Source: a virus
Length of the DNA stretch: 56,302 bases
UHGV virus genome: UHGV-0090450
Direction: 5' to 3' (one strand)
Below, piece by piece: positions 5,712-41,584 of this stretch. The notes under the pieces are model-generated. The model saw only the letters and a list, made by a program, of their open reading frames with translations, was not told the DNA's origin and searched no databases. Each line of letters starts with the position of its first letter. Position 1 is the first letter of the stretch. The translations under genes were made by a program, and so were the position numbers.

Positions 5712-6037
5712 TGACGACGTTAACTCAATGCCAGCAGCAGGTGCTGGATATGCTGATTTCTTATCAGAAAGAGCGTGGCTTTCCGCCAACCAATCAGGAG
5801 GTGGCAACCATGCTGGGATACCGTTCGGTGAATGCAGCGGTGGAGCATCTTCGCGCACTGGAGAAAAAAGGCCTCATCACGATAAAGCGTGGCGTGGCAC
5901 GGGGGATAACGCTTCATACCGCTGTGAAGGACGACGACAGCGAGGCGGTCGGGATTATCCGCGCACTGCTTGCCGGTGAGGAAAACGCCAGGCTGCGTGC
6001 AGCCCACTGGTTACATGAGAGGGGCCTGAAAGTATGA
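5711..6037 (+). CDS. LexA DNA-binding-domain-only protein (no S24 peptidase domain)
   Basis: LTQCQQQVLDMLISYQKERGFPPTNQEVATMLGYRSVNAAVEHLRALEKKGLITIKRGVARGITL aligns closely with the LexA N-terminal domain as recalled; ATG at 5711 overlaps upstream stop (TAATG); track ORF begins at 5678. Confidence 0.7.
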   Translation: MTTLTQCQQQVLDMLISYQKERGFPPTNQEVATMLGYRSVNAAVEHLRALEKKGLITIKRGVARGITLHTAVKDDDSEAVGIIRALLAGEENARLRAAHWLHERGLKV

Positions 6038-6423
6038 AGCTGATTCTGCCTTTTCCGCCCAGCGTGAACACGTACTGGCGACACCCCAACAAAGGGGCGT
6101 TTGCTGGTAAGAGCCTGATAAGCGCGGCGGGGCGCAAATTCCAGAGCGCGGCGTGTGCAGCAATAGTTGAGCAGTTACGTCGTCTGCCAAAACCAACGTC
6201 GGCACCTGCTTCAGTGGAGATCGTGTTGTTTCCACCGGATAACCGGATCCGCGATCTGGACAACTATAACAAGGCGCTGTTTGACGCCCTGACCCACGCG
6301 GGTGTGTGGGAGGACGACAGTCAGGTGAAAAGAATGCTGGTGGAGTGGGGGCCGGTTATCCCGGAAGGGAAGGTCGAGATCACTATCAGTAAGTACGAGA
6401 AAACGGCGGGTGCAGCCGCCTGA
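6034..6423 (+). CDS. rusA: RusA Holliday-junction resolvase
   Basis: Size and motifs (DLDNYNKALFDALTHAGVWEDDSQV) typical of RusA; nin-region position. Confidence 0.85.
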   Translation: MKLILPFPPSVNTYWRHPNKGAFAGKSLISAAGRKFQSAACAAIVEQLRRLPKPTSAPASVEIVLFPPDNRIRDLDNYNKALFDALTHAGVWEDDSQVKRMLVEWGPVIPEGKVEITISKYEKTAGAAA

Positions 6424-6442
6424 TTAAGAGGAGAAACGAAGT

Positions 6443-7240
6443 ATGAATAATCTGATGGTCATTGATGGTATTGAAGTTCGTCGTGATGCTTATGGGCGTT
6501 ACAGCCTGAACGATCTGCACAGGGCTGCCGGTTCTCAGGATAAGCATAAGCCTGCATTTTGGCTCCGCAATGAGCAAACCGAACGTTTAATAAGCGAGTT
6601 GCAGATTTGCAACTCGGTCAATATAGAGCCAGTTAACGTTAGTCGTGGCGGAAATAACCAGGGGACGTATGTCTGCAAAGAACTGGTGTATGCCTATGCA
6701 ATGTGGATCAGCCCGTCATTCCATCTGAAGGTGATCCGTACTTTCGATATGGTAACCAGCGCACCGGAAAAATTATCCGGGCAGGCTGCTGACAAGATGC
6801 AGGCTGGTGTGATTCTGCTGGACTTTATGCGTCGGGAGTTAAACCTGTCTAACTCATCTGTGCTTGGTGCCTGTCAGAAACTCCAGGAGGCTGTTGGCTT
6901 ACCGAATCTGGCACCGCGCTATGCCATTGATGCTCCTGCTGATGCACTCGATGGCTCAAGCCGCCCTACGCTATCATTGAGTGCACTGCTGAAGCAGTAT
7001 GGTATCCGCCTTACGGCTAATCAGGCATATCACCAGATGGTGAAGCTGGGGATCGTCGAACAGCGCGAACGATACAGCCGTACCGCGATTAACAACATCA
7101 AAAAATTCTGGTCGCTAACAGCGAAAGGCTGCATGTTCGGCAAGAACATCACCAGTCCCGCAAATCCGCGCGAGACGCAGCCGCACTTTTTCGAATCCCG
7201 ATTCCCTGAGCTATTAAAGCTGCTCGCTACCGTTCATTGA
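6443..7240 (+). CDS. KilA-N domain protein
   Basis: N-terminal KilA-N-like segment (IDGIEVRRDAYGRYSLNDLHRAAG...KPAFWLRNEQT). Confidence 0.65.
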   Translation: MNNLMVIDGIEVRRDAYGRYSLNDLHRAAGSQDKHKPAFWLRNEQTERLISELQICNSVNIEPVNVSRGGNNQGTYVCKELVYAYAMWISPSFHLKVIRTFDMVTSAPEKLSGQAADKMQAGVILLDFMRRELNLSNSSVLGACQKLQEAVGLPNLAPRYAIDAPADALDGSSRPTLSLSALLKQYGIRLTANQAYHQMVKLGIVEQRERYSRTAINNIKKFWSLTAKGCMFGKNITSPANPRETQPHFFESRFPELLKLLATVH

Positions 7241-7241
7241 G

Positions 7242-8237
7242 GTGACCGTGAGAGCACTACTGACCCCTGAAATTGCCCCGCGTATGGGGATCGTATTGTT
7301 CAGACCAGGTTCAGAGCTGATGCCCTTGTTTATGCAGGGGCGTGTCCTGCTGGAGCCTGAGCCGGAACGTTATTCATCTTTCGCCAGTGGTGCCGTTCCG
7401 GCGGCATCACAACCGCTGGCGGATGATCCTGCCGTTCGGGCCGTGTTCCGCAATGAGGCAGTGATTCGTCGTGCTGGTGGAGTGGAATGTCTTGAAAGCT
7501 GGTTACTTCGTGAAAAAGGCTGCCAGTGGCCTCATTCCGACTGGCACAGCGAGAACATGACCACAATGCGACACGCGCCGGGCGCAATCCGTCTGTGCTG
7601 GCACTGCGATAACCAGCTGCGCGATCAGTTCACGGAACGGCTGGAATCAATGGCAACGGATAACTGTGCCCGCTGGGTGTTGTCTGTTGTGCGTCGGGAT
7701 CTCGGTTTTGATGATAGTCACGCTGTGACAATGCCGGAACTGTGCTGGTGGCTGATTCGTAATGACCTGGCGGGTGCCTTACCGGAAAGTGCAGCCCGTA
7801 AGGCACTGAGATTACCGAAGCCTGTTGTGCCGTCTGTCACCCGGGAAAGTGACCTTGTGCCTTCGGTTCCTGCCACCAGCATCATCCAGGATAAGGCAAA
7901 AAAGGTGCTGGCGCTGAAAGTGGATCCGGAGTCGCCGGAGTCTTTTATGTTACGCCCAAAACGTCGCCGCTGGGTTAATGAAAAGTACACGCGCTGGGTT
8001 AAGACACAGCCGTGTGCATGTTGTGGTAAGCCTGCTGATGATCCCCACCACCTGATAGGCCACGGTCAGGGGGGAATGGGTACAAAAGCGCATGACCTCT
8101 TTGTGTTGCCTTTGTGCAGAAAGCATCACGACGAGCTGCATGCGGATACCGTGGCATTTGAAGAGAAGTATGGCTCCCAGCTGGAGCTGATATTTCGTTT
8201 TATCGATCGTGCGCTGGCAATTGGCGTGCTGGCCTGA
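7242..8237 (+). CDS. DUF968-like nin-region protein with C-terminal Cys/His cluster
   Basis: C-terminal CACCGKPADDPHHLIGHG...PLCRKHHDELH. Confidence 0.55.
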   Translation: MTVRALLTPEIAPRMGIVLFRPGSELMPLFMQGRVLLEPEPERYSSFASGAVPAASQPLADDPAVRAVFRNEAVIRRAGGVECLESWLLREKGCQWPHSDWHSENMTTMRHAPGAIRLCWHCDNQLRDQFTERLESMATDNCARWVLSVVRRDLGFDDSHAVTMPELCWWLIRNDLAGALPESAARKALRLPKPVVPSVTRESDLVPSVPATSIIQDKAKKVLALKVDPESPESFMLRPKRRRWVNEKYTRWVKTQPCACCGKPADDPHHLIGHGQGGMGTKAHDLFVLPLCRKHHDELHADTVAFEEKYGSQLELIFRFIDRALAIGVLA

Positions 8238-8239
8238 TT

Positions 8240-8608
8240 TTGCGGAGAAAGTTGATGCGTGATATGTATGAAGTTTTGGACCGCTGGGGGGCATGGGCTG
8301 CTGCAGAAAACAGTGGTGTGGACTGGCAACCGGTAGCTGCTGGCTTCAAGCGGCTTTTACCTCATGGCAGAAAGTCCCGGATTCAGTGCGATGATGATGA
8401 GGGCATCATAATAGACGGTTGTGTCGCTAGGTTGCGTAAATACAAGCCGGCAGAGTATGAGCTGATAATTGCTCACTTTGTTGTTGGCATTTCGCTCCGT
8501 ACAATTGCAAAGAAGCGGAAATGTTCAGACGGAACAGTACGAAAAGATATGCAAACAGCTATGGGGTTTATTGATGGCTGTTTGTCATTTTTTTATTTAA
8601 TACAATGA
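8240..8608 (+). CDS. late-gene antiterminator Q (small Q family)
   Basis: VLDRWGAWAA N-terminus and overall pattern of small Q antiterminators; located after nin-like genes and upstream of lysis module. Confidence 0.7.
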   Translation: MRRKLMRDMYEVLDRWGAWAAAENSGVDWQPVAAGFKRLLPHGRKSRIQCDDDEGIIIDGCVARLRKYKPAEYELIIAHFVVGISLRTIAKKRKCSDGTVRKDMQTAMGFIDGCLSFFYLIQ

Positions 8609-8687
8609 GTTAAGTGCTATGTAAAATCATTCTACTTTCCCAACTTTTATGTGTATATAATACCAGGGTAAAGTAACGGAGAATCTT

Positions 8688-31402: not shown

Positions 31403-32329
31403 ATGCATCGTATAGACACGAAAACCGCGCAGAAGGATAAGTTCGGCGCGGGTAAGAACGGTTTTACCCGTGGTAACCCCCAGACCGGCACACCTGCCAC
31501 CGATCTGGATGATGACTACTTTGACATGTTGCAGGAGGAACTTTGCAGTGTTGTGGAGGCATCCGGTGCCAGTCTGGAGAAGGGGCGGCACGATCAGTTG
31601 CTTACCGCACTTCGCGCGCTGCTGTTAAGCCGCAAGAATCCGTTTGGCGATATCAAATCGGACGGCACGGTGAAAACGGCTCTCGAAAACCTTGGTTTGG
31701 GAGATACAAGCGGATACGTGGGACGCTGGGTGAATACCCGGGTTTTCACGTCATCAGGTACGTACACCCCGACGCCAGGAACAAAACGGATCAGGGTCAC
31801 AATAACGGGCGGCGGTGGCGGAGGGGGCGGCTGCAAGGCTATATCCAATAATGAAACGTTTTTCGGTGCTGGCGGTGGGGCCGGTGGAACAATAATTTCA
31901 ATAATGACCCCGACACAGAATAGTTATCCAGTCACTATCGGCGCAGGTGGGGCCGGTGGTGTTAGTGCGACGTACGGCATCAATGGCGGTAATAGCTTAT
32001 TCGCATCGTTAATTGCTCCTGGTGGCGCAGGCGGCGGAAAGTCAGGAGTCACAAACACAAACGGTGGTAACGGAGGTGTGCCGAGTACTGGCGGTATCAA
32101 CATCATTGGTGGAAATGGAGGCGACGGTCAGTCCGGAAATATCGGCGTCAGCGGTGAAGGCGGAACATCGTACTGGGGGGGCGGTGGACGCGCAGGCGCT
32201 GGCGGTGGTGTTAGTGGTAAGGCATATGGTTCAGGTGGCGGTGGCGCATACGATGCCGGCTATAGCGGAACCAGTATGACAGGCGGGAAAGGTGCTGCTG
32301 GGATTTGTATTATCGAGGAGTTTGCATAA
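31403..32329 (+). CDS. tail fibre protein with Gly-rich C-terminal domain
   Basis: Conserved fibre N-terminus, long GGxGG repeats. Confidence 0.8.
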
Positions 32330-32745
32330 TGAATGCGTCATATGCAGTTATTGAAAATGGGATGGTTGTGAATGTCATTGTCTGGGATGGCGAGGCTGAA
32401 TTCACAGTGCCGGATAATCAGCAGCTCATTGATATTTCTGATATCAGTGAGCATCCCGGAATCGGCTGGGGGTATTCAGACGGGGTATTTACTGCGCCGC
32501 TCCCTCCGGAACGTTCTCATGATGAACTGGTAGCTGACGCTGAACAGAAAAAACAGTCGCTGATAGACGCAGCAATGGCCAATATCAGCGTGATTCAGTT
32601 AAAGCTGCAGGCCGGGCGCAAACTGACGCAAGAAGAAACTACCAGACTTAACGTTGTGCTGGATTATATCGAGGCTGTGACGGCAACAGATACCAGCATT
32701 GCACCGGATATTGAGTGGCCGGATGAACCGTGCTTCGCTGAATAA
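32329..32745 (+). CDS. tail fibre assembly protein
   Basis: Start overlaps fibre stop (TAATG); track ORF begins at 32305. Confidence 0.7.
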   Translation: MNASYAVIENGMVVNVIVWDGEAEFTVPDNQQLIDISDISEHPGIGWGYSDGVFTAPLPPERSHDELVADAEQKKQSLIDAAMANISVIQLKLQAGRKLTQEETTRLNVVLDYIEAVTATDTSIAPDIEWPDEPCFAE

Positions 32746-34623: not shown

Positions 34624-35493
<870 letters not shown>

Positions 35494-36032
35494 CTAACCC
35501 TTTGAATTTACATAGCGCAAAAAGATACCTTTCCTCATAATGTGAGCTAATTTTATGTTTCGTTTGATGATCGGATCGGTCTCGAAACCCGTAGCCACGT
35601 CGTATGCAAGAACGTGCTACGACTGGCTGGTGAACTTCCGATAGTGCGTGTATTGAATGATTTCCAACTGTTATCGATTTTGCGTATTTTTTGCATGAGA
35701 GGATTTTTACCTCCTCCCACCGATCCTCCATGGCTTTACGCCAGTGTCTCTGGTCTGCTATGTGCCAGAAGCGGAAGTTCCCACTATTATGCTCTGCATC
35801 GATACCGGGAAGGTACTTAAGTCCCCCGGTATTCACTGATATTATCCTCCAGCTACCGCAATGCCGCCCAATCTGGTATGGCTTAGCTAGCCAAGTAACT
35901 GCTGGCAGAAAGGCCTCTTCAAGCATACCATCCGGATTTACCGATGAGATTTCCCATCCAGCACGGAAATGATACTTTCTACTGACCCCAGATTTTTACT
36001 AAGACAATAAAGATACTGGATTCAATGAGGGG

Positions 36033-38597
36033 TTATTTCATAAGAGTGCGCCTTGTTTTGATCTGATCACGCCATTCTTTTAACGTGCTTATATCCGCTC
36101 GCAGCTCCTTATACTCTGGTATAGAAGCTGGCATTTCCGTCGACTGGCTGTGCTCATAACAGCTGTATTTAGTCATGAGGCTTTCAATCAATTTACAGTC
36201 TTCTGCAGTTATATCCTGTACATACGGAAGCCTTCCGTCAGTCTGGATTCCTCTTCTATGACGTATAACTACCCCGTTAAATAAATCCTCCTCGACAGAG
36301 CGCTCAATGAGTTTACGAAAATCACTGCAAACGCCCTGAGCTAGCCCACGGAAAGCTATTGCGCCATGTTCTTGTCCAGATTTGTAGGCTGAATCCAGCC
36401 TAGTCAGGAGAATGTTATTCGCTGATTTGGTATTCGCGTTCCAGACCTCCTGATCGGCAGGATGACCGGCAGCTCCATCAAATGATTCAATACATATCGA
36501 TTTATGGTGCTGCTTTTTCCATGGGTCTCCCTCTTTTCTTGCCAAATCTTCAATTACCCCGTAAAGGGAAAGTCTGTGCGTTAAAATAATCACCTGACGC
36601 GATTTAGCGAGTTCAACGAGGCGTTTAGCAACTTGCCACTCAAATTCGTGGTCCAGAGATGAAATAGGGTCATCAAAAATGAAGGGAGCAGATCCCGGCC
36701 GATCAGTGACATCGGCTAAAAATGCAGCCAGTGAGATAATCCTACGTTCTCCTTCACTCAGAACATTGTGCAACTTGTCCCGTTGCGCTCCTTTTAGCTG
36801 TAGCTGATGCAAAACTTTCGCATTTTCTGTCCTTATTTTCACAAGCTCAACCTGCAAGCCAGGAGCACCAAGAACTTTCAGCTCACGGTTGAATCTGGCG
36901 GCATAGGCTTCAGTGACAACTTTCTGAGTAATATCAGCAGATTTAGTTGATAATGCACGGGAAGCGGCAAGTGATATCCATTCATCAAATTCACTTCTTT
37001 TTTTTAAGCGTTCAACTTCGGCTCTGATAGCCTCGGCTTGACCAGATAACCACCGTCGAGCTTCGGCTTCGTTTTTATTCTGCAAAGCTTTGGCCCTGTC
37101 AAATCCTGCTGCATCTCTCTGAAACTGGTCGGCTTCTCCCTGAAGCCGGTCGCGGTAAGTACGTAAATTCGTGATAGCTTCGGTCAAATCAGCCAAAGGA
37201 ACTGCTGTCTGGGTAGCTTCATGCTCGGTGAGCGCCTGACGACTGAGGGATGCGGAACTCCATATTCCCGTTAGGTATTTATTCCATTCTTCCTGAATCG
37301 CAGCGCTTGCACAAAGGGTAGCAATTTCGGCCATTGAGGGAGGAATAGTTATCGAGCCGATTGCCTGAGCATACAGACACTCAGCTGTGGCAGCATCGCT
37401 CTCAAGACGTGATTGCACGAAAGCCTCAAGATTGTTCAGACGCTGCTGAGCTTCTGCGGATAGAGCCTGATTGCATAAAACACAACAGGCCTCATCTGTT
37501 GCCGGAAAAGCCTTGTCTGGATAGGGCGTCCTTGAATAGTCGCGAGCAGCTTCCCACATGGCACGCCATACAGGTGAGCCAATGCCCTCCAGTGAGTCAT
37601 CTTTTATTCGTTCACTATCAAGCGCAATTCTGCGCTTGCTGATGCTATCAGCACGTAACGCCCGAAGACAGTCGATATTTGACTGGCTAAAAGTCTTTGC
37701 CGTCTGCTCAAGTTGAGTGATGATCTGATTAACAGATGTTTGAACCGCAAGCTTGTTGCGGGCGTTCTCAGCCGGATCTTTAACGTTCAGACGTTCATTC
37801 AAGGCACTAAGCGCTTGCTCATCCGCCTCAGACCAGTTTGTCATCACTGCGATATTTTCGGTAGTTGCTGTACTTAGTGCACTATAGGTAGTGGCAATAT
37901 GACAACGCTGATAAACAGCAGGTAGTTCGGGAAGTTTGCTGACTAGCTGAGACTGTTCATCCCTTAGCTTATCGCGTACCAGTTTCAGGTACTGGGCCAG
38001 TTTTTCAAAAAGCCCCACCACACTCGGTATATAGGTAGCGGCACTCTCTTGGGTGAGATAATGCAGAGATTCATCCGTATCGAAGATATCAATGCCTTTC
38101 AGGGCATCGATCGGAGGGCTGTCAGCTGACCAGTCCGCTTCAGCATTGCTTTCATTCGCTTTCCATTTAATGTGGCAACTTCGCTCAGGTGGTAAGGGAT
38201 TAAAGACATTAGAGTTAAGCTGAGCTGCTCTAGGTTTTCCGGACATACGTTTGAGCACACGCGTATAGCTGGATTTACCGGACCCGTTATGGCCGTAAAT
38301 AACAGTCAGATTCCCTGAACCGAAATCGAGCGGTAAACGTGGAGCAAGGTTCTCAATACCCTTTACAGCTTCGATCCGACTTAACCTGAGTGTTCCAGAT
38401 CCCTGCTCTGCAGATGCTAGGCCTAGGAAAGTATGGTGTGTCGTTTTTGTTCGTCCATGGGGGGTCTTGAGTAAAGCAATAACCTGCTGAAGGTCATTAT
38501 CTGTCAGGTCATCCTGTTGAATGAGTCTTTCCGCTAGTTCCTGAAACCAGTCCTGCTGCTTTAACAGCCAGGCTATGATATCGGCCTTTACATCCAT
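36033..38597 (-). CDS. RloC-like ABC/SMC-type ATPase with coiled-coil insertion and CxxC zinc hook (AAA_13-like)
   Basis: Walker A VIYGHNGSGKSS, signature LSEGERRIISLAAFLA, Walker B FIFDDPISSLD, H-loop ILTHR, CVLC within the roughly 500-aa insertion; RBS AGGAGGG. Confidence 0.7.
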   Translation of the reverse strand: MDVKADIIAWLLKQQDWFQELAERLIQQDDLTDNDLQQVIALLKTPHGRTKTTHHTFLGLASAEQGSGTLRLSRIEAVKGIENLAPRLPLDFGSGNLTVIYGHNGSGKSSYTRVLKRMSGKPRAAQLNSNVFNPLPPERSCHIKWKANESNAEADWSADSPPIDALKGIDIFDTDESLHYLTQESAATYIPSVVGLFEKLAQYLKLVRDKLRDEQSQLVSKLPELPAVYQRCHIATTYSALSTATTENIAVMTNWSEADEQALSALNERLNVKDPAENARNKLAVQTSVNQIITQLEQTAKTFSQSNIDCLRALRADSISKRRIALDSERIKDDSLEGIGSPVWRAMWEAARDYSRTPYPDKAFPATDEACCVLCNQALSAEAQQRLNNLEAFVQSRLESDAATAECLYAQAIGSITIPPSMAEIATLCASAAIQEEWNKYLTGIWSSASLSRQALTEHEATQTAVPLADLTEAITNLRTYRDRLQGEADQFQRDAAGFDRAKALQNKNEAEARRWLSGQAEAIRAEVERLKKRSEFDEWISLAASRALSTKSADITQKVVTEAYAARFNRELKVLGAPGLQVELVKIRTENAKVLHQLQLKGAQRDKLHNVLSEGERRIISLAAFLADVTDRPGSAPFIFDDPISSLDHEFEWQVAKRLVELAKSRQVIILTHRLSLYGVIEDLARKEGDPWKKQHHKSICIESFDGAAGHPADQEVWNANTKSANNILLTRLDSAYKSGQEHGAIAFRGLAQGVCSDFRKLIERSVEEDLFNGVVIRHRRGIQTDGRLPYVQDITAEDCKLIESLMTKYSCYEHSQSTEMPASIPEYKELRADISTLKEWRDQIKTRRTLMK

Positions 38598-39120
38598 TAC
38601 TGCCCTCCTTCATTCATGACGATAAAGGAAGCGAAACTGAATGCGCCTCCCAGCACATTGCTACCACGCCCTAGTGTGTGGCGTTAAGAATCATCTGATA
38701 GTGCATCAGCCACTTGAGATGAGCAACACTTGATCAACAAAAATTGGCAATAGTGTATCCGTAATCCACAGTAAAATGCTCACGCTCCAGTAGATCCCGA
38801 AATGAAGTCTGCTCACTAAACGTCTGCGGGGACTTCGCTACAGGTTTGCAGACGAGGCATAAGTATCTTAACTTTTGGCGACTGGGCAGTGATATATAAA
38901 GGTGAGATTAAAATTATCCGAATGATTTCATCGCTATGATATTAGCCTTGATCAGTATCATAAAACCTAAGCCGTCCGCTGCTCGATCACAGTAACCGTG
39001 TTATTCATGGCCTGTCTGCAACCAAGCTTTCTTAGATCAGTGTGTGTTGAACAATGGGGGAACAGGTCATCATAAAGGCACTTAGGGATTTAAATTCCGA
39101 AAGTGCCTCTTATTAATTTT

Positions 39121-39657
39121 TTACTTAACAAGTTTAATTGTTATGCCTGAGTTAGGGCCAGGAGGAACGCCTAATGCTGTATCTACACCTGGGTTATTAC
39201 GTAAATCATCAAGAATTTCTTCCGGTCGGAACTTTTTCCCGATAACAGCTTGAGATTCAGGGCGTGGATTTTCTGAGTGTCTTGCTCGGTAAGCTTCAAC
39301 AAATTCAATTCCTTCTGCTATTGCTCGCGAGCTCAAGCCTCGGGCAAATAAACGATTGAATTCTCCTTCAGCTAAAGTTCGAGCGGCTGTGTGAGGAACT
39401 TTAGCCTGAATTATCTCAGTGCTATTAGGCTTTCTTCTAGGATAATGGGTGGCCAGTAATCCTCTATTTAGGATTTCTTGCTCAAGCCATGCATCATCAT
39501 GTTGAGATGCTTCTTCTAACAAAGAAGGCCACACAGTCTTACCTTGAGCAGTAAGAAAATTGCTTAAATAAAAACTGTTATTTTCTTTATCAAATTCAAT
39601 TTCTTTAAGCATAAATTTTTTGGTTGAATCATCCAAATCAATATAATTTAAAGACAT
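39121..39657 (-). CDS. hypothetical protein (178 aa)
   Basis: ATG at 39657 (MSLNYIDLDD) preceded by GAGGG; track ORF starts at 39711; palindromic operator-like sequence upstream. Confidence 0.5.
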   Translation of the reverse strand: MSLNYIDLDDSTKKFMLKEIEFDKENNSFYLSNFLTAQGKTVWPSLLEEASQHDDAWLEQEILNRGLLATHYPRRKPNSTEIIQAKVPHTAARTLAEGEFNRLFARGLSSRAIAEGIEFVEAYRARHSENPRPESQAVIGKKFRPEEILDDLRNNPGVDTALGVPPGPNSGITIKLVK

Positions 39658-40042
39658 AAAACCCTCTGCTATATGTAGAAAGAAAACTCCAACCGCACTA
39701 TTAAATTGCAAACCATCTTAAGCAATCATATCTTTTGATGCAAAAGGAAAATTTACCTTTTGCAAAAAGGTTTTTCTTATACCATGAAGTCAGCCCTAGT
39801 ATGGTAACGCACTCACTTGGGCCCTATTGATTAAGACAGCGATAGGTAAGTCATATTTTTATAAGTTATAAGAGCAACTGCGAACTTCCGCTCTTCGCTC
39901 ATAACAGACATAAACTTCAGTTATGGCATAAAGGTATGCATGCTGGGTGGGGAAAGTATGAAGGAAAAGAAGACTGCTGCGCCGTTTGTCGTCACGTTTA
40001 TCTTCATTGGCTATGCAAGTCGTAATACAAGGTGGGACAAAA

Positions 40043-40369: not shown

Positions 40370-41584
40370 GTGAAACTCAATGCCCGTCAAATAGACACTG
40401 CCAAGCCAAAAGAGAAGGCTTACAAGCTGGCTGATGGTGGTGGTCTGTATCTCTTGGTAAAACCTAGTGGAGGAAAATATTGGCGCTTCAAGTATCGTGT
40501 AGCTGGTAAAGAGAAGCTGTTAGCACTAGGTGTGTATCCTGAAGTTACCTTGGCTGATGCTCGTGCAAAACGTGAAGAAGCTAAAAGGGGTATCGCTGGG
40601 GGTATCGATCCGATGGAAGCGAAACGAGAGGAAAAGATTGCCCGGGAAACGCAGTTAAACAACACCTTCAAAGATATTGCCCTTGAGTGGCACAGCAGCA
40701 AATTAAAAAAATGGTCTGCTGGTTATGCTTCAGACATCCTCGAAGCCTTCAACAAAGATGTGTTCCCTTACATTGGCAAAAAACCAATCGCCGAAATCAA
40801 ACCACTTGAACTGCTGAATGTGCTGCGGCGCATCGAGGGGCGCGGTGCTACCGAAAAAGCCAAAAAAGTGAGGCAGCGATGTGGGGAAGTTTTCCGCTAT
40901 GCAATTGTCACTGGACGTGCTGAGTATAACCCTGCACCGGATCTCACCAGCGCGATGCAAGGTCATGAATCTAATCATTATCCTTTCCTCACAGCCAAAG
41001 AATTACCTGATTTTTTCAAGGCATTGTCCAGTTACTCAGGAAGTGCATTGGTTGTTATGGCGGCTCGTTTACTGATTATCACCGGTTTGCGGACTGGCGA
41101 ACTGCGCGGTGCATTATGGGATGAAATCGATCTCAACAAGGCTATCTGGGAGATACCTGCTTCACGGATGAAAATGCGTCGCCCTCATGTAGTGCCTTTG
41201 TCTGAGCAGGCTCTTTCGCTTATTGGGCAGATTAAAGAACTAACTGGCAATTATCCGCTTATGTTTCCCGGCCGTAATGATCCAAGGAAAACAATGAGCG
41301 AGGCTAGCATAAACCAAGTATTTAAACGCATCGGCTATAACGGAAAGGTTACTGGTCATGGCTTCCGGCACACTATGAGCACCATTTTGCATGAGCAGGG
41401 CTATAACACCGCGTGGATAGAGACACAGCTTGCGCACGTCGATAAAAACTCAATTCGTGGCACATACAACCATGCGCAATATCTGGATGGGCGGCGGGAA
41501 ATGCTTCAGTGGTACGCTGATTATATGGATTCGCTCGAGCATGGCGGAAATGTGGTGCATGGTGAGTTCGGAAAATGCGGGTGA
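40370..41584 (+). CDS. int: tyrosine integrase (P4 type, N-terminal arm-binding domain)
   Basis: N-terminus KLADGGGLYLLVKPSGGKYWRFKYR, C-terminal catalytic region (HGFRHT, LAH...RGTYNH); GTG start after GGAGG; adjacent to tRNA fragment. Confidence 0.9.
   Translation: MKLNARQIDTAKPKEKAYKLADGGGLYLLVKPSGGKYWRFKYRVAGKEKLLALGVYPEVTLADARAKREEAKRGIAGGIDPMEAKREEKIARETQLNNTFKDIALEWHSSKLKKWSAGYASDILEAFNKDVFPYIGKKPIAEIKPLELLNVLRRIEGRGATEKAKKVRQRCGEVFRYAIVTGRAEYNPAPDLTSAMQGHESNHYPFLTAKELPDFFKALSSYSGSALVVMAARLLIITGLRTGELRGALWDEIDLNKAIWEIPASRMKMRRPHVVPLSEQALSLIGQIKELTGNYPLMFPGRNDPRKTMSEASINQVFKRIGYNGKVTGHGFRHTMSTILHEQGYNTAWIETQLAHVDKNSIRGTYNHAQYLDGRREMLQWYADYMDSLEHGGNVVHGEFGKCG

Follow-up and report, generated by a model that had tools for sequence, protein, structure and literature searches.

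The window, a 56,302-nt stretch of DNA from the virus genome UHGV-0090450, carries a gene for an 854-aa ABC ATPase at positions 36033-38597 on the minus strand. As judged from profile alignments and predicted structure, its family is a relative of RloC with a different C-terminal domain and is not wholly new. RloC is among the oldest proposed 'suicidal tRNase' defences. Our preferred reading, to which we give a probability of roughly 0.55, is that the protein is a stand-alone abortive-infection protein borne on mobile elements, in which the RloC chassis carries a HEPN-like effector that would disable translation, most likely as a metal-independent RNase. The gene is a plausible candidate for phage defence.

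The reading frame, taken from the ORF list and its translation, was intact and coincided exactly with the 854-aa frame that an earlier note on this DNA had reported without a strand. The product was identical to RefSeq WP_021534238.1, and the gene shared 100% nucleotide identity with annotated coding sequences in two E. coli genomes. A strong Shine-Dalgarno sequence, GAAGGAGG (38604-38611, minus strand), could be read 6 nt 5' of the ATG. All features of this gene described below lie on the minus strand, and residue numbers of the ATPase count Met1 as 1. The current label is only 'AAA family ATPase', and the gene is an E. coli-native, single-gene candidate that could easily be tested.

ATPase head, hook arm and relation to RloC

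The ABC head is split into two lobes. The N-lobe (aa 67-190, 38028-38399), delimited by Pfam and by alignment to the Walker A region of RloC, holds the Walker A motif GHNGSGKSS (aa 102-110, 38268-38294), identified in the sequence and in homologue alignments. The C-lobe (aa 577-715, 36453-36869), supported by Pfam, homologue alignments and hhalign, contains the signature LSEGERR (aa 613-619, 36741-36761), the Walker B motif FIFDDP (aa 639-644, 36666-36683), the D-loop SSLD and the H-loop LTHR (aa 672-675 with H674, 36573-36584). Between the lobes, the secondary structure of the AlphaFold model showed a helical insert (aa ~191-577, 36870-38027) composed of an ascending arm, a hook loop and a descending arm. 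At its midpoint, in a low-confidence loop between the helical arms, lies the CxxC motif C372-V-L-C375 (37473-37484). The split head and the Walker A, signature, Walker B, H-loop and CVLC motifs were found where the earlier note had placed them. That note had also described a coiled coil of roughly 500 residues; a helical insert carrying CVLC is indeed present, but in the AlphaFold model it measures ~385 residues and consists of ~14 helices with breaks.

The residues of the ATPase motifs and both cysteines were all invariant in 117 homologues of 49-92% identity and in a further 41 of 29-47% identity, and because they are invariant across both sets they are not chance occurrences. The hook was the most conserved module of the family, and its CxxC is a predicted zinc hook of the Rad50 type.

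The earlier note had proposed a profile search against AAA_13, RloC and PrrC. Pfam AAA_13 scored 67.8 bits, well above its cut-off of 36 bits, with matches that stopped by profile position ~605 of 713. The PADLOC PrrC model matched aa 639-689 only. When the family was compared with the genuine RloC family by hhalign, the hook, the descending arm and the C-lobe aligned over 314 columns with a probability of 97.1% (E=4.9e-11). The alignment covered the signature, Walker B and H-loop, included the insert from aa 336 onward, and placed CVLCQQ of the 854-aa ATPase column for column with CPFCQQ of RloC. The Walker A region was aligned with a probability of 89% (E=2e-6), and the Walker A of RloC lies ~70 residues closer to the N-terminus. 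By these alignments, the hook and the descending arm, together with the C-lobe of the ABC head, share ancestry with those of RloC. Of the RloC/PrrC-type architecture suggested earlier, the RloC half was borne out and the PrrC half was not.

The N-terminal 66 residues (38400-38597) form a helical domain of three helices in the AlphaFold model, which classical RloC does not have. No other module of the family varied as much: identity to the query fell as low as 3%. Pfam and PDB sequence searches returned no match for this domain.

A conserved C-terminal domain unlike that of RloC

The C-terminal domain, a putative effector, spans aa 716-854 (139 residues, 36036-36452). The earlier note had left the last 170 residues without an assignable motif; the domain still matches no family, but it is shorter than that, since residues 676-715 belong to the ABC C-lobe in the AlphaFold model. 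The structure prediction that the note had called for returned a helical bundle, modelled with confidence, whose best structural matches were HEPN RNase domains, namely the HEPN toxins HepT of HEPN-MNT, SO_3166 and HI0074, which are likewise all-alpha bundles; these matches were weak, and they gave no distinction between a HEPN fold and helical bundles in general. By sequence, the domain matched nothing in Pfam, its HEPN families included, nothing among PDB sequences and no nuclease family. A PADLOC match of the domain to HEC-01B (E=0.006) was treated as spurious, since HEC-01B is a TOPRIM protein.

Among 266 sequences, diverging to ~30% identity, seven polar or charged residues of the domain (R, E, E, R, T, S and H) were invariant or nearly so, the invariant ones being R761, E765, E769, R779, S812 and H816. 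They fall into three conserved patches: R761-x3-E765-x3-E769 (36291-36317), R779 to T786 (36240-36263) and [K/R]810-Y-S812-x-Y-E-H816-S-Q-S (36141-36170). Position 810 was K in 220 of the 266 sequences, R in 28 and E or D in 15 (acidic in ~6%). As in HEPN toxins, an invariant His (H816) is combined with acidic residues conserved on a preceding helix, and in 93% of sequences a basic residue stands five positions before this His. The domain differs from these toxins in that the canonical Arg of the HEPN Rx4-6H motif is mostly Lys, and in that it has an additional invariant residue, R779, in a beta-hairpin, which is untypical of minimal HEPN domains. The coupling of a prophage-borne ABC ATPase to a C-terminal HEPN domain has been described earlier (Anantharaman et al. 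2013, PMC3710099). The prototype of that architecture, APECO1_4465 (YP_852004), was considered as a member of the same family and rejected, both because it is a different protein of 738 aa and because no diverged copy of the 854-aa ATPase gene could be detected in the DNA of E. coli genomes.

Comparison with RloC gave a different result here from that obtained with the hook and C-lobe. When the domain was aligned with the RloC ACNase profile by hhalign, the probability was 0.2% and the score 12.6, compared with 13.7 +/- 2.4 for column-shuffled controls, and 27 of the 40 shuffles scored at least as high as the real comparison. Nor did any PADLOC model for RloC or PrrC match the domain. We conclude from these searches that it is not the ACNase domain of RloC or PrrC. 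RloC itself is a wobble-nucleotide-excising, zinc-responsive anticodon nuclease, and the operational screen for it looked for a C-proximal Arg-X3-Glu-X36-52-His (PMC2610378). That pattern is present as R761-x3-E765-x50-H816, each residue being at least 99.6% conserved among the 266 sequences, as a pattern match only; it was rejected as proof of homology to the RloC domain because the profile-profile comparison was no better than shuffles. The 2008 table of RloC orthologues lists a homologue from B. phymatum, flagged 'Poor ACNase triad?' (Davidov & Kaufmann 2008, PMC2610378). The earlier note had allowed for a new variant, and this describes the protein well, in that the RloC chassis is kept and the C-terminal domain is different; the family itself had already been listed, both in that table and as the PADLOC class PDC-S06.

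Three other views of the domain have to be weighed. The first, which we regard as a minority reading, is that the RloC sensor chassis is modular, the anticodon-nuclease domain having been replaced by an unrelated effector with an R/E/E/R/T/S/H active site, either a new RNase family or one of different chemistry or target, and the hypervariable N-terminal domain serving as a phage-specific trigger receptor. Somewhat less likely is a protein with the same chassis and the same defensive role whose C-terminal domain is not a nuclease at all. It would be a four-helix-bundle module for regulation or for binding a ligand or partner, and toxicity or defence would arise from the ATPase arm itself, for instance because it clamps DNA or consumes ATP, or else from an effector recruited in trans, either one of the host or one encoded at an unlinked site. 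The inability of the fold matches to tell HEPN from a generic bundle, the lack of a sequence match to any nuclease family and the existence of non-catalytic HEPN-like domains (PMC3710099) are compatible with such a module. However, seven near-invariant polar or charged residues across 266 sequences are a pattern typical of an active site, the domain is among the better conserved modules of the family, and no conserved partner gene was found in any context examined.

We consider it less probable again that the domain is a nuclease with a target other than tRNA, cutting mRNA or rRNA indiscriminately, or DNA. HEPN effectors do include the non-specific mRNases RnlA and LsoA (PMC3710099), and the domain has neither homology to the tRNA-specific ACNase domain nor the anticodon-recognition region of PrrC. 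But the characterised defence nucleases coupled to ABC ATPases mostly hit tRNA (PrrC, RloC, PARIS AriB, retron PtuAB and P2 OLD), an argument that is one of analogy only. A HEPN-like effector, most likely an RNase and by analogy most likely acting on tRNA, is the reading that we carry forward.

Genomic setting and distribution

The ATPase gene is flanked on one side by the tail-fibre assembly gene of a prophage that has a Mu-type tail module, and on the other by the integrase of a P4-like element next to that prophage, in keeping with the 'prophage-end cargo' of the earlier note. It adjoins PD-T4-3, and the same slot is occupied by a SIR2 gene in other strains. Elsewhere, the gene or its homologues were found in the P2 tail-fibre/sheath hotspot, in an ICE transfer module, in a P4-like island, in defence islands and on plasmids, 187 of which carried the gene. 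None of 50,697 sequenced phage records contained it, which counts against the preferred reading. The subfamily comprised 719 clusters at 50% identity. Its spread over hundreds of such clusters, the 187 plasmids and prophage hotspots shows how widespread it is.

In E. coli the gene is rare. Only 18 of 5,426 genomes carried it, and 16 of these 18 held copies that were frameshifted or disrupted by IS elements. Such decay is expected for an accessory gene that is costly or toxic, although it could also come from a few clonal lineages and not from toxicity.

This distribution bears on the view that the protein is a housekeeping or phage ATPase for DNA repair or recombination, of the SbcC, Rad50, RecN or SMC type. 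When the full-length model was searched with Foldseek, the matches were SMC, Rad50, SbcC, RecN and JetC heads with coiled coils, and there were weak NCBIfam matches to RecN and RecF. All NCBIfam scores, however, were far under their cut-offs, no SbcD/Mre11 or kleisin partner was found in more than 12 contexts, and the gene always lay on accessory or mobile DNA. The conserved C-terminal domain has no counterpart in repair SMCs, and the homology to the RloC hook and arm is specific. A repair role is effectively refuted by distribution and context and is the least probable of the explanations considered. The earlier note had named a housekeeping partner, an SbcC/RecN-type assignment or a missing hook as outcomes that would speak against its proposal; no such partner and no SbcCD or RecN context was found, and a hook loop was predicted between the helical arms.

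No conserved neighbour or partner gene of any kind was found in the more than 12 contexts, and neither an Rfam search nor scans for tRNAs and promoters gave any hit at the locus. A block of ~4.2 kb (35753-39909) that contains the ATPase gene and an upstream gene of 178 aa (39121-39657) was shared, with at least 98.5% identity, by three unrelated E. coli contexts. Since the two genes travel in one block and on the same strand, a two-gene system in which the 178-aa gene acts as regulator or antitoxin has to be considered; we hold it to be quite improbable. A gap of 523 bp separates the genes, the ATPase gene has its own strong ribosome-binding site, and the 178-aa protein, for which Pfam and PDB-sequence searches returned nothing, matched only a PHROG of unknown function. 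Moreover, the 178-aa gene was missing beside homologues of 92%, 83%, 58%, 54%, 51% and 49% identity and in plasmid contexts. It therefore travels along as a neighbour without being a conserved partner, and was rejected as a general feature of the system. A downstream ORF of 157 aa (35453-35926) was likewise rejected as a part of the system, having no database match and no RefSeq annotation and reaching into the shared block with its first 58 codons only.

Proposed mechanism and comparison with known systems

From these features we infer a defence phenotype, a nuclease activity, an RNA target, a trigger and a dimer-dependent activation. The Rad50/SMC-type ABC head and the zinc-hook arm would serve as sensor and regulator, and in an uninfected lysogen they would keep the C-terminal domain inactive. 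An infection-linked cue would shift the ATP-dependent dimerisation state of head and hook; by analogy with RloC it could consist of DNA ends, damaged DNA or a factor from the phage, and the variable N-terminal domain might be what reads it. Two C-terminal domains could then meet and form an active site from R761, E765, E769, R779, S812 and H816. RNA would be cut, with tRNA by analogy the most likely target, and phage production would stop.

If the C-terminal domain proves to be an RNase, a divergent HEPN-like family would be added; if it does not, a new type of effector would be at hand. In either case a subfamily that seems to have kept the sensor chassis and swapped the effector serves as a natural experiment in the coupling of an ABC head with a zinc hook to different toxic domains.

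RloC is the closest known system. Like the 854-aa ATPase, it combines in one polypeptide a split ABC head, a helical insert bearing an apical CxxC and a C-terminal effector domain, which is putative in the 854-aa ATPase. Both families mostly occur as solitary genes, in many cases on mobile DNA. The present protein differs in being ~100 residues longer and in having the variable 66-aa N-terminal helical domain, and its C-terminal domain has no detectable relation to the ACNase domain of RloC. PrrC, the tRNA-Lys anticodon nuclease of the EcoprrI locus, resembles the 854-aa ATPase in the AAA_13-type ABC head, in the DD of Walker B (PMC3025547), and in placing a C-terminal toxic domain (again putative here) under ATPase control on one polypeptide. 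Unlike the 854-aa ATPase, PrrC has ~396 aa and no coiled-coil or hook insert, and its gene lies within a type Ic R-M system that keeps it silent, whereas the 854-aa ATPase gene has no R-M linkage, has prophage cargo as neighbours and has no hsd genes among them. The 854-aa ATPase is classed as RloC-like and not PrrC-like because PrrC has no coiled coil and belongs to a type I R-M locus.

Rad50, SbcC and SMC proteins share the head fold, the emerging helical arm and the apical CxxC. In the 854-aa ATPase the arm is much shorter, Walker B has DD and not DE, a C-terminal domain is added, the distribution is accessory or mobile, and no Mre11/SbcD or kleisin partner accompanies the gene. The HMMs of Lamassu LmuB, Wadjet JetC, PARIS AriA and Septu PtuA gave weak partial matches only, and none of the obligate adjacent effectors of these systems (LmuA, JetABD, AriB or PtuB) was a conserved neighbour in the contexts examined.

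In PADLOC, sub-model PDLC04893 of PDC-S06 covered aa 1-850 and profile positions 1-860 of 862 (E=0, 1059 bits), PDC-S06 being a single-gene phage defence candidate and as such a prediction (Payne et al., preprint 10.1101/2024.01.29.577857). PDCs were nominated because their members are embedded in BREX, DISARM or type I R-M loci. The 854-aa ATPase shares the single-gene organisation of the class, but the class is heterogeneous. Its ~13 HMMs also capture classical RloC orthologues, for which the sub-model is PDLC04890, and take in an RloC orthologue listed in 2008. On these results PDC-S06 of PADLOC is largely the RloC superfamily under a second name.

Genomic neighborhood of the ATPase gene

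The prophage in the window had a Mu-type tail module, and its tail-fiber assembly gene (32305-32745) was followed by a minus-strand cargo block of lower GC. This block comprised an Acyl_transf_3 gene, a GIY-YIG protein, the RloC-like ABC ATPase gene (36033-38597, minus) and a 178-aa gene, after which came a P4-like integrase. The LEM-3-like GIY-YIG protein (34624-35448, minus) matched PD-T4-3, an experimentally validated single-gene defense system, in PADLOC (E=4e-140); the RefSeq annotation has a 257-aa version of it. A 157-aa ORF (35453-35926, minus) had neither a database match nor a RefSeq annotation. No more than the first 58 of its codons lay within the mobile block common to a P2-like prophage; it is likely to be spurious or else a remnant. 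The tyrosine integrase (40370-41584, plus) and the sequence onward formed the start of a second, P4-like satellite element, which in a homologous genome carried HTH, AntA/B, Ash and TOPRIM/DUF927 primase genes. The satellite directly abutted the prophage end, suggesting that the two share one site in tandem. The window had no tRNA gene.

The 178-aa gene (39121-39657, minus; WP_021534237.1) matched phrog_30545 only, and its protein had no match in Pfam, PADLOC or PDB. It traveled with the ATPase allele of at least 99% identity in three unrelated E. coli contexts, was kept even beside decayed ATPase copies, and was absent next to every remoter ATPase homologue examined. Since it accompanies only this allele, the system is a single gene, and it is quite unlikely that the 178-aa protein is a second component. 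The unusually long intergenic region of 523 bp between the two genes (38598-39120) contained no Rfam match, no convincing promoter and no ORF.

Motifs and predicted anatomy

The ATPase was encoded by an uninterrupted ORF of 854 codons, with GAAGGAGG read directly on the minus strand 6 nt 5' of the ATG, and was identical to RefSeq WP_021534238.1, annotated 'AAA family ATPase'. The whole set of motifs listed in the earlier note was found in the ORF, confirming that observation; in true numbering, the ORF had Walker A GHNGSGKSS (aa 102-110), the CxxC (C372-V-L-C375), the signature LSEGERR (aa 613-619), Walker B FIFDDP (aa 639-644), the D-loop SSLD (aa 646-649) and the H-loop LTHR (aa 672-675). 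The homologue alignments (A1-A3) and the full-length model omit Met1, so that a printed position is the true position minus 1. All the ATPase motif residues, together with C372 and C375, were invariant in 117 homologues (49-92% identity) and 41 remoter ones (29-47%). The protein matched Pfam AAA_13 at 67.8 bits against a cut-off of 36, and SMC_N was also above threshold.

The AlphaFold2 model (117-sequence alignment, mean pLDDT 84.9) predicted an N-terminal domain of three helices (aa 1-66), an ABC N-lobe (aa 67-190), a helical insert (aa 191-576), an ABC C-lobe (aa 577-715) and a separate C-terminal domain (aa 716-854). The insert was modeled as ~385 residues in about 14 helices, indicating that the 500-residue coiled coil proposed earlier was too long; halfway along the insert, the helices gave way to a loop modeled with low confidence (~357-380), which bears the CxxC. 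Foldseek matched the full-length model to the heads, with emerging coiled coils, of SMC, cohesin, Rad50, SbcC, RecN, JetC and retron-Ec83 PtuA. Across the wide family, conservation was highest in the hook, followed by the two head lobes and the C-terminal domain, then the arms, and the N-terminal domain was by far the most variable module.

Distribution and other contexts

The slot flanked by PD-T4-3 and the integrase was occupied in several other E. coli strains by a 936-aa SIR2-family protein instead (5811-8621 in locus L019 of strain a15, the counterpart of window ~35750-39900), a cassette exchange typical of a prophage-end defense hotspot. An identical copy of the ~4.2-kb block lay in a P2-like prophage, between the tail-fiber assembly and tail-sheath genes, and a decayed one in a CP4-like island. 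Among 5,426 complete E. coli genomes there were 18 carriers, and the ATPase gene was intact in 2; the other 16 copies carried frameshifts, were cut short or had an IS100, IS66 or IS110 element inserted. These 16 pseudogenized copies, in E. coli M22546 and PF9285 (loci L013 and L014) and 14 other genomes, lay in the CP4-like island. Such decay could come from fitness cost or toxicity, or simply from clonal inheritance.

Homologues at 49-83% identity were solitary genes in several settings: within an ICE transfer module, in a P4-like island beside an Mrr-type nuclease, or adjoining YobI-ATPase/AAA_15 genes, a NERD-helicase giant or nSTAND3 genes. A repair ATPase, to which the Rad50, SbcC and RecN heads might point, is very improbable beside these defense-type contexts. 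Plasmids with a homologue numbered 187 and came from hosts ranging from Proteobacteria to Firmicutes; the gene was present in no sequenced phage record. In two distant contexts (L015/L016, 7592-9381; L003, 3022-5723), the homologue adjoined a two-gene AAA_15/AAA_21 ATPase cassette with a small partner gene, resembling Gabija, PARIS or Septu.

Relationship to RloC and proposed mechanism

The features by which RloC was defined are ABC motifs, a coiled-coil insert with a CxxC hook, and an anticodon nuclease (ACNase) triad of the pattern Arg-X3-Glu-X36-52-His (PMC2610378). From the orthologue list of that paper we took the 746-aa protein of Shewanella sp. ANA-3 plasmid 1 (WP_011711575.1) as the reference; it carries the classic MRRIIENYF...INDGSH motifs, and JGI names its family 'wobble nucleotide-excising tRNase'. 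The profile-profile match between the two families (97.1% probability, E=4.9e-11, 314 columns) started just N-terminal of the hook, took in the descending arm, the signature and Walker B and ended at the H-loop, with CVLCQQ aligned on CPFCQQ; the Walker A region aligned separately (89%, E=2e-6). By these two matches, the chassis of head, hook and helical arm is homologous to that of RloC.

The isolated C-terminal domains gave no homology signal (score 12.6, probability 0.2%), as 40 column-shuffled profiles scored 13.7 +/- 2.4 and 27 of them equaled or exceeded the real score. AAA_13 matches in ten divergent members ended by profile position ~605 of 713, and the domain alone had no Pfam family or PDB sequence match; in PADLOC, only PDC-S06 models of the same architecture matched it. 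R761-x3-E765-x50-H816 fits the published triad, but being only a pattern match, it was rejected as proof of homology. The interpretation of the earlier note, an RloC/PrrC-type architecture whose C-terminal part had no assignable motif, was supported.

We favor, at roughly 55%, a single-protein abortive-infection device in which the ABC head and zinc hook would sense an infection-linked state, ATP-dependent dimerization would transmit control to the C-terminal domain, and this domain, as a HEPN-like RNase, would shut down translation. Its basis is the architecture, the chassis homology, the residue invariance and the solitary context, whereas the nuclease activity, RNA (tRNA) target, trigger and phenotype are suggested by analogy with RloC, PrrC and other ABC-ATPase-coupled tRNases (PARIS, retron PtuAB, P2 OLD). 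A non-catalytic C-terminal domain is a weaker candidate, set against conservation on a par with the head lobes, and a nuclease with a target other than tRNA is somewhat less probable still.

The ATPase matched PDC-S06 sub-model PDLC04893 over its full length (E=0). PDCs are 145 candidates, predicted only, nominated because some of their members sit inside BREX, DISARM or type I R-M loci, and no paper describes an experimental test of PDC-S06. The Shewanella RloC orthologue was also called PDC-S06 (models PDLC04886-04898), by sub-model PDLC04890 (E=3e-266), so that PDC-S06 overlaps RloC to a great extent and is in essence the RloC superfamily, not a new type of system. A full-length homologue with the same C-terminal domain was found on a plasmid of Paraburkholderia phymatum STM815 (E=7e-37), and the 2008 table of RloC orthologues already includes a B. 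phymatum homologue, marked 'Poor ACNase triad?'. APECO1_4465, the prophage ABC-HEPN prototype, was rejected as the same protein, being a different one of 738 aa.

The subfamily was previously flagged by others and is a candidate defense gene. The sensor chassis is common to RloC and the ATPase, which would work in the manner of RloC; however, the latter lacks the RloC/PrrC ACNase domain, the defining test of RloC, and has an extra N-terminal domain and a distinct C-terminal domain. It should be classed as an RloC-like (PDC-S06) subfamily whose putative effector is distinct and which has this additional N-terminal domain.
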